DNA from: Chlamydiota bacterium
GTDB lineage: Bacteria; Chlamydiota; Chlamydiia; Chlamydiales; JAJFMA01
Reading direction: 5' to 3'
NCBI GenBank assembly: GCA_021772415.1
Contig: JAJFMA010000096.1
Coordinates: forward strand, 1-40,380
DNA length: 40,380 bases
Part shown: positions 4,542-20,581 of the stretch, in pieces
Numbering within the stretch: position 1 is the stretch's first letter
How the letters are laid out: every line of letters starts with the position of its first letter
Made by a program: the position numbers and the translations under genes
The notes under the pieces: generated by a model
The model's database searches: none
What the model was told of the DNA's origin: nothing
Seen by the model: only the letters and a program-made list of their open reading frames with translations

Positions 4542-4681
4542 TTAACGCAAAGAAGCAAAGACGCTAAGACGCTAAGAGAAGAAACTCGTATTATAGTGCC
4601 CCCATTATCTAGACATTGGGGACCACTATAACACCATAGTTCCTCCCTTTGCGTCTTAGCGTCTTTGCTTCTTTGCGTTAA
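4542..4681. repeat. Long intergenic hairpin with 8-nt periodic arms (REPIN-like); may also act as a bidirectional terminator
   Basis: Perfect 31-bp inverted repeat 4542-4572 / 4651-4681 plus inner stem 4591-4604 / 4617-4631, between convergent genes. Confidence 0.9.
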
Positions 4682-16057: not shown

Positions 16058-17896
16058 CTATTGCACATCTGCAGCGCAGCGGAACCCGTAAGTTCCGTTG
16101 ACGGTACCAGGATTATTTCTGTGTCGCCTGGAACAGCGAAGATCTTCTTTTAGGCTCTTCCAACAGCCGCCACGTAGCACGCGGTAGACTCCCTGGCGTG
16201 GACCTTGCGGATTATCAGGCTCTTGAACCGAGCGCTCGTAGTAGTTGTAATCGTACCAATCTAGACACCACTCGTAGACATTACCCGCCACGTCGTAAAG
16301 CCCGAGCTCATTCTCGGGGTAGGCCTTAATCGGTGTGGTATCAGCGCTAAAATAGTTAGCCTGGCTCTTATCAATCGCATCTCCTGTGGGGAACGCCCAC
16401 CCGTGGTCTCCGCCACTGGCTGCGACCTCCCACTCGGCCTCGGTAGGTAGGCGCTTACCTACCCACTTGGCGTAGGCGGAAGCCCCGTACCACGTTACCC
16501 CTACCACAGGATGTTTGTGGTAGCCTGACTCGATGCTCACTTTGCCACCACTACGCTTAATGCGAGACTCTCTTAAACGAATGAGGTCACGATGGAAATT
16601 GTCCTTTTCGCCTCCCATAGCCTCTAAGAAGCGCACAAACTGCTCGTTGGTGACAGGATGGACATCAACAGCAAAGCTGCGAAGGGTGATCTTATGGCGA
16701 GGCAGTTCGTCACGTTTACCGTCGGTACTACCTCGGGAGAAAGTTCCCCCTTCGATAATAATCATCTCAGTCTCGAGTGGAGCAATCTCCGGTAGCTCCT
16801 TCGACTCAGGTTGGTAGACCTTTACCGTATGGTCGACTTGGAAGGCCTTCTCGGGGTGAAGATCTTCCTCTGGACGCTCGAGATGGCGCGAACGGATGAG
16901 GGGTTGAGGACTTCCATCAGCGTGGCGAGCTTGGCGCTGAGGTGTCGGGGTAGGAGCCACTTGATTCAGCTCAGCCATAGCGTCGGTTAACGTCTTTGGA
17001 CGCTGTGTCGGCTCGGGGTGCATACACAACTGCACGAGTGCGTCCCAGTTGCCTACTAAATCGTCTCGCAGTGTAGAGGGAAGAGGGAAGCAGCCTTCTG
17101 GCACCCTGCCGGCCAAAAGCCAGTAAGCCAATACCCCAAAGGCATAGCGGTCTGTTGCCACACCAATCGCGTTGAAGCGTGCCACATCTTTTTGCTCAGG
17201 AGCAAGGAAGGCGAATGTTTGCTGGAAGGAATCGTGCCACGCCAACACCTCTGGGCTCGCGTCGGTACTGCCCTCGGACAATGTACGCAGCACAACAGAA
17301 AGTGTGCGCGCCAAAATGTGTAAACTACTTGCCATCCCAGCTAAGCCAAAATCTCCGACACTCACCTTCAAGCCATTACCTTCCACGCTGACGTGTACGT
17401 TAGAAGGCTTTAAGGCTCCATGGACGGCCGGATGATTCCCGAGCTGCGTTGTATGCGCATGATCCACAGCCGCGGCAACCTGCTGAAGGATTTGACTGAT
17501 CACATCTTCAGTAAGTCGTTGCTGATGCGCATCAAAAAACTGCACAAGACTGGTCGTTGCCCCCTCAGTATCCACTACCGCGTCAGTGACGAGGAAATAG
17601 CGGCCATCTGCTTGAGATACATTATGGACGCGAACGACATTAGGGTGATTTAACTGCCCAAGAAGACGCACTTCGGTTTCAAAACGCTGGATAAAACCAG
17701 GGGCGGAAGCGATGTCTTCATGGAGAATTTTGAGAACTACGGGCTGCTTAAGAAAGCGATGCTCAGCAAGAAATGTCTCACCGAGAGACCCCGACCCGAG
17801 GCTACGTAAGATACGGTAATCACCAAAATTACGAGAGCCCTCTTGACCCTGGAGCACTGCAGAATCGCTTTGCTGCCGTGTGTCGTCCTCCGTCAT
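16058..17896 (-). CDS. pkn1: Chlamydial Pkn1-type Ser/Thr kinase fused to an FGE-sulfatase (SUMF1) domain
   Basis: LGSGSLG, VLK, DFG and APE kinase motifs; C-terminal RLPTEAEWE, GNVYEW, RGGCW and GFRC. Confidence 0.85.
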   Translation of the reverse strand: MTEDDTRQQSDSAVLQGQEGSRNFGDYRILRSLGSGSLGETFLAEHRFLKQPVVLKILHEDIASAPGFIQRFETEVRLLGQLNHPNVVRVHNVSQADGRYFLVTDAVVDTEGATTSLVQFFDAHQQRLTEDVISQILQQVAAAVDHAHTTQLGNHPAVHGALKPSNVHVSVEGNGLKVSVGDFGLAGMASSLHILARTLSVVLRTLSEGSTDASPEVLAWHDSFQQTFAFLAPEQKDVARFNAIGVATDRYAFGVLAYWLLAGRVPEGCFPLPSTLRDDLVGNWDALVQLCMHPEPTQRPKTLTDAMAELNQVAPTPTPQRQARHADGSPQPLIRSRHLERPEEDLHPEKAFQVDHTVKVYQPESKELPEIAPLETEMIIIEGGTFSRGSTDGKRDELPRHKITLRSFAVDVHPVTNEQFVRFLEAMGGEKDNFHRDLIRLRESRIKRSGGKVSIESGYHKHPVVGVTWYGASAYAKWVGKRLPTEAEWEVAASGGDHGWAFPTGDAIDKSQANYFSADTTPIKAYPENELGLYDVAGNVYEWCLDWYDYNYYERSVQEPDNPQGPRQGVYRVLRGGCWKSLKEDLRCSRRHRNNPGTVNGTYGFRCAADVQ

Positions 17897-18918: not shown

Positions 18919-18955
18919 AAAAGGGGCCGGACCCTGCGATTCGTGCGATTCTATG
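18919..18955 (-). repeat. Left (inverted) copy of the RAYT-flanking motif
   Basis: 18919-18952 AAAAGGGGCCGGACCCTGCGATTCGTGCGATTCT is 33/34 identical to the reverse complement of 20055-20088. Confidence 0.92.
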
Positions 18956-19020: not shown

Positions 19021-19998
19021 ATGCCTAGAAAGAAGCGATCTTGGCAAAAGAACATGTGCCACCACGTCATGCTAAGGGGCATCGACGGTAGAAACATCTT
19101 TGGTGACGATGGTGACCGCAGTAGATTCTGCCTATTACTCCAGGAAGCGTCCGAACTACACTCGTTCCGGATACATGGCTTCTGTCTCATGTCCAATCAT
19201 GTGCACTTCATAATAGAACCCGTTGGCGACCGATTATCGACTGGAGTTCACCGTTTTGCTGGAAGATACGCCCAGTACTTTAACAAGAAGTATGACAAAA
19301 ACGGGTACGTCTTCCAAGGGCGCTTTCGCTCTATTTTGGTGCAAGACGGGGTCTATTTACGAAGATTACTGAGATATATTCATCTGAATCCTCTGGAGGC
19401 ATCTCTCACTAGGTCAGCTGAGGAGTACAGGTGGTCTAGTCACGGCGCCTACTTCGGTAGAGCAATCTTTACTTGGCTAGAAACAGACCGAGTCCTGTCC
19501 TACTTTGGCAACAATCATCGAGATGCGTTGGCTAAATTAGCCGTCTTCATGAACGCAAAAGCACAGTCCCACGACGGTGCCGAAGAAATACAACGTGCTT
19601 CGCGGGTAGGGGCCTACGGAAGTCAGGAATTTACAAAGATCTACGCCCCAGAAACTGAGTCTAGTCTATTACAAAGTACCCACCAAATCATTGATCCAAA
19701 ACTCAAGTTGACTAATGCCTTAGAGGCTGTCTGCCAACGCTTTGACGTATCCATAGAGGTACTACGAAGTAGTGACAAAAGGCGCTGTGCTGTAGAAGCT
19801 AGAGCAGTCCTAACGCGGACTTGCCAAAGGATGGAAGGATTGAGTATCAATGACGTGTGTACATTACTTGGAAAGCACCACGGGACTCTGTCACGGCTAG
19901 CATCACGCGCTGTTAGTCAACCACATTTGCGTCACGCGGTTGACGAACTAGTGCAATGGCTGTCGAAATATGTACAGTCTCAGTCCAGTATCTATTGA
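19021..19998 (+). CDS. REP-associated tyrosine transposase (RAYT, Y1 HUH) with a C-terminal DnaA-domain-IV-like HTH
   Basis: MPRKKR..HHVMLRG, CLMSNHVH (HUH), VFQGRFRS, YIHLNP (catalytic Tyr) and YRWSS; C-terminus VCQRFDVSIEVLRSSDKRR..EAR..LGKHHGTL. Confidence 0.88.
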   Translation: MPRKKRSWQKNMCHHVMLRGIDGRNIFGDDGDRSRFCLLLQEASELHSFRIHGFCLMSNHVHFIIEPVGDRLSTGVHRFAGRYAQYFNKKYDKNGYVFQGRFRSILVQDGVYLRRLLRYIHLNPLEASLTRSAEEYRWSSHGAYFGRAIFTWLETDRVLSYFGNNHRDALAKLAVFMNAKAQSHDGAEEIQRASRVGAYGSQEFTKIYAPETESSLLQSTHQIIDPKLKLTNALEAVCQRFDVSIEVLRSSDKRRCAVEARAVLTRTCQRMEGLSINDVCTLLGKHHGTLSRLASRAVSQPHLRHAVDELVQWLSKYVQSQSSIY

Positions 19999-20052: not shown

Positions 20053-20224
20053 ACAGAATCGCACGAATCGCAGGGTACGGCCCCTTTTACGAATCGCAGG
20101 GTACGGCCCCTTTTACAGAATCGCACGAATCGCAGGGTACGGCCCCTTTTACGAATCGCAGGGTACGGCCCCTTTTACGGCCCCTTTTACGAATCGCAGG
20201 GTACGGCCCCTTTTTACGGCCCCC
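20053..20224 (+). repeat. Tandem array of the RAYT-associated motif ACGAATCGCAGGGTACGGCCCCTTTT
   Basis: Five 26-27 nt copies (20063, 20089, 20125, 20151, 20189), two 10-nt leaders (20053, 20115) and two short suffix copies (20177, 20216); degenerate copy near 20372-20420. Confidence 0.95.
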
Positions 20225-20296
20225 TAAAATAAAACAATCAGAGTGAAACAACCATTCAAAGCATTTTACTCCTACCCAAAGACATTGAGCCCCCCA

Positions 20297-20345
20297 CATG
20301 ACCCTCCATGTACTCCATGCCCTTCCCTCCATGTTCTCCATGGTT
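20297..20345 (-). repeat. Solo arm of ~9-nt periodic CTCCATG repeat
   Basis: CTCCATG four times, ending CTCCATGTTCTCCATGGTT; related arm at 28995-29033. Confidence 0.65.
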
Positions 20346-20581
20346 TTTCTCGAGTGGACAAGGCTAAGCCATACACGAACCGCACGGTAGGGCCCCTTTA
20401 TCTCCGGCCCCTTTATCCCCGCATGCGTTCACCATGACCTCGAGCTTTCCACGGCGGCACACATACTTTTTCCTTGCCCTAGTTCCCCTTGGGCGTGTTG
20501 GCTTTTAATGATTTGTCTGTTATTTTGACTGCTTTCAAAAATCACGGTTTCTCCGTCACCCGCAACTGGTAACGACTCTTT

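Follow-up and report, generated by a model that had tools for sequence, protein, structure and literature searches.

Nested, end-anchored copies of a terminal inverted repeat beside a TIRYT-type transposase gene in a Chlamydiota genome

TIRtrons, as described in the text of Di Nocera et al. 2013 (PMC3733652), are RAYT-like genes with flanking inverted repeats in place of REPs. In the text of Quentin et al. 2018 (PMC6006769), the ‘TIRYT’ proteins of Di Nocera et al. 2013 correspond to subclass 2.1.2 of TnpA_REP, which has a Bac_DnaA_C-like C-terminal domain. The motif GGGGWSAS is common to ‘some’ terminal inverted repeats (TIRs) only; dispersed families exist for some TIRs, ‘organized as REPs in dimers or clusters’, many TIR elements being present as such dimers or clusters, and different TIRYT genes with different TIRs can coexist in one genome (text of PMC3733652). 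For REPtrons, the texts of PMC3333891 and PMC8266576 report that tandem copies at one locus are near-identical and differ in number between strains, and that the repeat is flanked on both sides by a dinucleotide, C|T or C|A, at which the enzyme cuts. In the text of Ton-Hoang et al. 2012 (PMC3333891), a model of local amplification is proposed for TnpA_REP. A first cleavage would leave a 3′-OH for extension by a host polymerase, a second cleavage would follow 3′ of the repeat, and strand transfer would close the cycle; the model predicts units bounded by the cleavage site 3′ of the repeat and by a second, variable site.

The window, i.e. the whole stretch of 40,380 nt of Chlamydiota DNA that was analysed, comes from a draft genome of 307 contigs (2.98 Mb, 79% complete). 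An array of short direct repeats in it had been put forward as a candidate for an undescribed system. This claim is withdrawn, as a gene with inverted repeats of this TIRYT/TIRtron type is already in print; on sequence grounds the system is assigned to a known kind, TIRtron/TIRYT in TnpA_REP subclass 2.1. The transposase matches Pfam Y1_Tnp with E 7.3e-11 (42.7 bits, cut-off 23), and its C-terminus matches Bac_DnaA_C with E 6.1e-6, at 26.6 bits and thus under the Pfam cut-off of 31.5. Against the NCBIfam RAYT equivalog NF047646 it reaches 62.5 bits, below the cut-off of 80. When solved structures are searched with the single sequence, only DnaA domain IV is found (PDB 3pvp, E 2.8e-4). A profile of 11 homologs finds the same domain with E 1.1e-8 and, weakly, E. 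coli TnpA_REP 4er8 (E 0.0099), which is retrieved with the profile only. In an alignment of 11 sequences (the window gene, three paralogs and seven homologs from related genomes), H60 and H62 of the HUH motif and R82-Y83 are invariant, and from its position Y83 is the putative catalytic residue. The gene, its repeats and their surroundings are arranged as follows.

18919–18952, minus strand: left TIR, single copy of 34 nt, outer (GGGG) end facing away from the gene, 33/34 identical to 20055–20088
19021–19998, plus strand: transposase gene of the TIRYT type (Y1 HUH), coding for 325 aa, with a C-terminal helix–turn–helix that resembles DnaA domain IV (Pfam, alignment, profile search)
20053–20224, plus strand: expanded right TIR in the form of a nested 3′-coterminal array, its full unit being the whole 34-nt TIR plus 2 nt
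20053–20088, plus strand: unit 1, 36 nt, full unit
20089–20114, plus strand: unit 2, 26 nt
20115–20150, plus strand: unit 3, 36 nt
20151–20176, plus strand: unit 4, 26 nt
20177–20188, plus strand: unit 5, 12 nt
20189–20215, plus strand: unit 6, 27 nt
20216–20224, plus strand: partial last unit, 9 nt
20292–20347, plus strand: CTCCATG-rich module, which elsewhere in the genome precedes TIR-type ends within a composite dispersed repeat
20374–20420, plus strand: degenerate second TIR-like end (family D1, 88% copy), with its own diverged 15-nt end duplication (family D5, 15 nt twice)
20582: start of yidC, downstream of the array

The array lies downstream of the transposase gene and on the same strand. 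Its architecture, as given in the original prediction, agrees exactly with a re-reading of the letters: the six unit lengths and the 9-nt partial unit are correct, the T-run end claimed for the complete units is seen in all of them, and the 36-mer has AC solely at positions 1, 11 and 25, each of which is used as a restart in the window. The complete units likewise proved free of substitutions, the sole difference being a fifth T in the last one. Since the reverse complement of the left TIR is identical to 20055–20088 at 33 of 34 positions, the 36-nt full unit represents the right TIR plus two letters, and the T-run end of the unit is the outer end of the element. The outer motifs are GGGGCCGG on the left and GGGGCCGT on the right; compared with GGGGWSAS, GGGG and position 6 fit, while positions 5 and 7 differ. 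A target-site duplication was rejected, the letters outside the left and right TIRs being different both at the window and at locus L064. Positions 20053–20114 are exactly identical to 20115–20176 (repeat family D2), so that the series 36, 26, 36, 26 is one 62-nt block duplicated and not four independent additions. Tandem Repeats Finder (TRF) reports periods of 12, 26, 36, 38 and 62 on the array. The 12-mer unit occurs six times in the window, against 0.005 occurrences expected at the window's composition, and chance is no explanation for the array. A CRISPR-like reading was also discarded, since the units are nested and without spacers.

Directly after the array, at 20292–20420, lies a degenerate copy of a composite repeat. 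The end of its CTCCATG-rich module, CTCCATGGTTTT, has 59 copies in the genome and none for the reversed control, and a copy of the composite repeat used as BLAST query returns 71 rows. This module often occurs in inverted pairs, often followed by a TIR-type end, which implies a larger composite dispersed element; many copies of the window TIR form the end of a longer composite repeat that starts with the CTCCATG-rich module. Other repeats are also present in the window. Arrays of a 12-nt unit are present at 1–32, 567–664, 726–758 and 857–922 (CGTGCCCGTGTG at the window start, its reverse complement further on). They flank a small ORF region around 141–500, inside a higher-order repeat of roughly 130 nt, and this CGTGCCCGTGTG family is distinct from the TIR. 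At 4545–4580 and 4647–4680, inverted runs of 8-mers resembling ACGCAAAG and CTTTGCGT constitute a long imperfect inverted repeat; at other places in the genome, many TIR ends have similar ‘ctttgcgt’ modules immediately on their outer side. On the minus strand, 16058–17896 encodes a 612-aa protein with a Ser/Thr protein kinase domain and an FGE-sulfatase domain.

The source genome holds five matches to the transposase, namely the window gene, three full-length paralogs (56, 42 and 34% identity) and one fragment at a contig end. All four full-length genes have their own inverted repeats, and at those on C303, C131 and C289 the downstream TIR is a nested array. The paralog on C300 has long TIRs without an array, with the outer motif GGGGTCAGG. 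Beyond the window, the arrays beside these genes are:

C131, downstream of the gene: two units
C289, downstream of the gene: 47, 47, 47 and 36 nt
C49, beside the gene fragment at the contig end: 45, 29 and 29 nt

Dispersed copies are numerous. The window TIR (30 nt, ≤3 substitutions) has 17 copies at 15 loci on 11 contigs, and the TIR of the C289 paralog has 16 copies at 11 loci, with none for the reversed control in either case. Arrays distant from any TIRYT gene occur on C253 (three), C49, C298, C55, C127, C133, C5, C297, C47 and C273. A CGGCCCCTT end is found at 64 loci, 51 of them with a single copy and 13 with an array. Throughout the TIR arrays of the genome the unit has the same shape, with a variable start (6–38 nt upstream) and an end fixed a few letters past the terminal C-run. 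As to requirements for array formation, a C at +6 is found in 9/13 arrays and 23/51 single copies, a difference that is not significant (Fisher P 0.21). A perfect 17-nt tandem repeat of nearly seven copies, at 2939–3053 of contig C302 of G000, runs into the contig end.

Similar arrays are found in relatives and beside distant homologs. The 3-contig genome G006, from another genus of the same family, has its own different TIR and arrays of 46, 23, 43 and 17 nt with one fixed end. In G017, a relative from the same order, the same TIR type is spread as inverted pairs and not as nested direct arrays: 42 exact GTCAGGCCTGACCCC copies are present, mostly as inverted pairs 44 nt apart (REPIN-like), and its TIRYT gene, too, is flanked by copies on either side. 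Reference genomes were scanned for homologs, and 593 of 600 candidate stretches were confirmed. Among the matches listed, which include Geobacter, Acidobacteriota, Chlamydiales MAGs, Coxiella, Duganella and others (two from Chlamydiales/Chlamydiae MAGs), 36 of 80 loci combined a match of nearly full length with a complete upstream flank and were examined. Inverted repeats of 14–44 nt are present at 33 of the 36, nearly all with the outer end GGGGTCAGG, and are absent at L074, L126 and L140. On the 66 TIR sides of these 33 loci there are 16 clusters of end motifs; 13 were judged by eye to be partial copies of the TIR end in tandem, and those upstream at L067 and L070 and downstream at L092 were set aside. 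Units of only 7–9 nt (tail plus 1–3 C) are present in arrays of the genome and of the homologs alike. Judged from these sequences, the observation is more general than the window and recurs beside related genes in many bacteria.

The fixed end generalises, also between paralogs whose TIR sequences are unrelated: units share an end about 4–6 nt beyond the terminal CCCC, which reads GGGG on the opposite strand. The distance was measured by an automated parse, in which letters were counted from the C-run to the start of the next copied stretch. The minimal tail has its mode at 5 nt both in the source genome (14/43 new junction types, with 29/43 at 3–8 nt) and in other genomes (9/46, with 35/46 at 2–8 nt). 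For informative units (≥19 nt), tails of 2–8 nt occur in 20/32 cases in the source genome, versus 12.1 expected (P 0.003), and in 11/19 cases in other genomes, versus 6.8 expected (P 0.035). The expected counts assume a junction anywhere in the unit, and the P values are rough because the counts are non-independent and the anchor pattern is self-chosen and loose, noise included. Outliers are mostly chance clusters of this loose pattern in coding DNA, or pieces holding two junctions. When letters that fit either side of a junction are allowed, a tail of 5 nt is admissible at 28/40 junctions and one of 6 nt at 22/40. Strict exact-suffix tiling succeeded for 23 of 48 anchor clusters, the window array being excluded by its extra T and partial last unit. 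Such tiling gives two-unit arrays no upper bound and hence was used for five multi-unit arrays only, where the tails are 5–6, 7, 6–7, 5 and 6 nt. The tails show no sequence relationship to one another (T-rich, AATCAC, GATCAC, ACCAT, AGCCT, CGAATA, CCTTCG and AAGTCA).

The restart is less constrained than the end. A test had been proposed of whether arrays beside homologs obey one rule of fixed end and fixed dinucleotide; the fixed end is found in paralogs, in the sister genus and in other phyla, whereas restarts vary. As a general rule AC/GT fails, since the restart base over 64 junctions is C in 30, T in 18, A in 10 and G in 6. C is preferred (30/64, against 27% C in TIR bodies; binomial P 6e-4), which makes it a preference and not a rule. 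At 40 junctions the number of letters common to the restart and to the flank after the last unit is 0 in 12, 1 in 15, 2 in 4 and 3 in 9, compared with a random-junction estimate of about 22, 11, 4 and 2. Short pairing is thus in excess. Which letters are shared depends on the locus, even within one TIR family (AC at the window array, C or CAG on C253, AT in G006), so that they do not represent an enzyme-specific dinucleotide. Base pairing with each locus's own flank would explain restarts more simply, and a 2-nt match agrees with the window array, where restarts fall on each of the three AC sites and nowhere else.

The window array has a local origin. Each of the five units with the GGGT-A-CGG stretch has A at this position, in contrast to C in the left TIR and in 24 further copies of the genome; elsewhere in the genome the A variant is found in one copy only, on C24 and in a different context. 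As the five longer units share the locus's own variant, the array grew locally, and repeated insertion of copies from elsewhere is discarded at the window. The exact identity of units and of the 62-nt block points to recent events. The number of units is a draft-assembly figure: in contigs from four sequencing runs of one study (depth 2–5), none spans the array and all break inside it. No RNA run is listed among those that match the stretch. A contig of run X3 (depth 4.2) covers 20189–20477 and carries one additional 13-nt unit, and a contig of run X2 has a T insertion in a T-run of the array; these differences hint, if weakly, at variation of the array within the population. A 1105-nt contig of run X1, aligned at 20190–20223, has inverted unit copies at both ends and diverges from the window past the last unit (a loose end). 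This contig may come from a different locus or from a variant strain that has the same TIR.

How could such a pattern arise? The array is, on balance, probably the product of a local amplification triggered by the transposase at the TIR end. The pattern probably marks where the enzyme acts, and we infer that the fixed point is the site of TIRYT action on the TIR end. TIRYT would act there either by nicking or by tight or covalent binding, and each cycle would copy the TIR end anew. One route would follow the TnpA_REP and BIME model, in which cleavage leads to primer extension and then to strand transfer; a fixed second site combined with variable first sites would yield nested, 3′-coterminal units. 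Another would require one nick only, with polymerase run-off and then re-priming upstream on 0–3 nt of pairing, which would account for the locus-specific microhomology. Repeated cycles with different restarts, together with duplication of whole blocks, would complete the nested pattern. A stronger proposal, held only tentatively and with some doubt, is that the arrays are in vivo footprints of the catalytic cycle, in which TIRYT would nick 5–6 nt outside the GGGG/CCCC run and, through extension and rejoining, add partial copies of the repeat end in succession. The enzymatic repeat addition suggested by the original prediction thus survives in part: the fixed end is tied to the HUH gene family and has a counterpart in the TnpA_REP/BIME model in the text of PMC3333891, but the AC/GT site is lost.

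A serious rival, though a rather less probable one, is plain replication slippage or microhomology-mediated template switching, independent of the enzyme: the polymerase would leave after the C-run or T-run and realign upstream, the fixed end being an intrinsic pause. Microhomology of 1–3 nt at most junctions, following each locus's own flank, speaks for it, and polymerase template switching yields an excess of shared letters without any enzyme. Within the window, the difference between 36- and 26-nt units falls between two near-identical internal stretches of 9–10 nt, the 12-nt unit requires a 4-nt match only, and T-run length is variable, as in the fifth T of the last unit and the T insertion of the X2 contig; moreover, tandem repeats abound in the genome, with 262 TRF regions over its 2.98 Mb. 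Against transposase action at a fixed point also stand 24 of 64 junction tails that are unlike the last tail of their own array. Yet the same distance, about 5–6 nt past CCCC or CACC, recurs with unrelated tails, so that a sequence-specific pause is unlikely. Pairing amounts to only 0–1 nt at 27/40 junctions, which is little for unaided slippage, and the unit has no stable hairpin to drive it (z +1.07 and +0.26; array z +2.54). In addition, the intergenic nested multi-period arrays inspected in the TRF list are all TIR-derived.

Selection offers another explanation, which we regard as unlikely: outer ends would be kept as putative iteron-like or DnaA-box-like sites for the helix–turn–helix, with copies supplied by any duplication mechanism and those that include the GGGG motif retained. 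The homology of the C-terminal domain of the transposase with DnaA domain IV agrees with this, as does the size of partial copies beside distant homologs, most commonly 11–14 nt with the GGGG motif included. However, the 7–9-nt units lack most of the motif and hold too little of the TIR for binding-site selection to be the sole cause, a constant outer boundary with a variable inner one is left unexplained by selection, and the TIR motif is unlike the DnaA box in the text of Quentin et al. (PMC6006769). Finally, two further readings of the array are very improbable, namely an artefact of assembly, or an RNA element of the upstream gene that derives from the repeat and acts as terminator or ncRNA. 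The draft state of the genome in 307 contigs and the breakage of contigs from all four runs inside the array would suit an artefact, but equivalent arrays exist at many other loci of the genome and in other assemblies, including the 3-contig genome. The location of the array downstream of the gene, on its strand and with T-runs, would suit an RNA; none of the three terminator-like sites overlaps the array, however, Rfam gives no match at E up to 1, and the array folds more weakly than shuffled sequence (z +2.54). The earlier ncRNA reading is accordingly abandoned. Local amplification triggered by the transposase remains the preferred reading.

The apparent novelty lies in the nested and end-anchored shape of the arrays, together with the constant distance of the junctions from the GGGG/CCCC run. 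Nested partial TIR copies anchored outside the GGGG run are not mentioned in the running text of PMC3733652, whose Figure 9 may show some, and no description of such copies was found in the text of the TIRYT and RAYT-DnaA literature, figures and supplements aside. End-anchored nesting makes a concrete prediction, namely a cut or stall point 5–6 nt outside the GGGG run, with array growth as its natural read-out, and bears on how REP-type and TIR-type repeats multiply. If the footprint reading is true, arrays would map the cleavage site across many phyla and ‘domesticated’ TIRYT transposases would be active repeat-adding enzymes. If slippage alone is at work, the pattern would be a mere oddity of repeat-rich genomes.

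Among known systems, TIRtron/TIRYT elements, as presented in the texts of PMC3733652 and PMC6006769, are the closest. Like the window, they combine a single-domain Y1 HUH transposase with a C-terminal DnaA_C-like helix–turn–helix, the extension in this group being of Bac_DnaA_C, HTH_23 or HTH_28 type, and inverted repeats flank the gene, with outer ends that begin with GGGG. Like the source genome, they have dispersed TIR families and divergent genes, each with its own TIR. They differ in the consensus GGGGWSAS given in the published text, versus GGGGCCGG and GGGGCCGT in the window. REPtrons (TnpA_REP/RAYT with REP/BIME) share Y1 enzymes and, according to the texts of PMC3333891 and PMC8266576, belong to a sister clade. 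REPs are palindromic hairpins of 20–40 nt, tagged with GTAG at one end, whereas the 36-nt unit has neither GTAG nor a significant hairpin; its identity as a REP was rejected on these grounds, shuffled sequence folding at least as well as either of its strands (z +1.07 and +0.26). Moreover, the window protein stays under the NCBIfam RAYT cut-off (62.5 versus 80 bits), and BIME-2 arrays, in the text of Corneloup et al. 2021 (PMC8266576), repeat whole units, whereas the units described here are nested truncations. In IS200/IS605 elements (IS608 and ISDra2), as the literature describes them, the Y1 HUH chemistry is the same, cleavage occurs at a set distance from a recognised end structure, and the right-end 3′-OH is joined to the left-end 5′ phosphotyrosine. 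These elements have subterminal hairpins, lack inverted repeats and move as identical copies; here, in contrast, the genome copies are divergent paralogs (56, 42 and 34% identical) whose ends are inverted repeats, and membership in IS200/IS605 was rejected.
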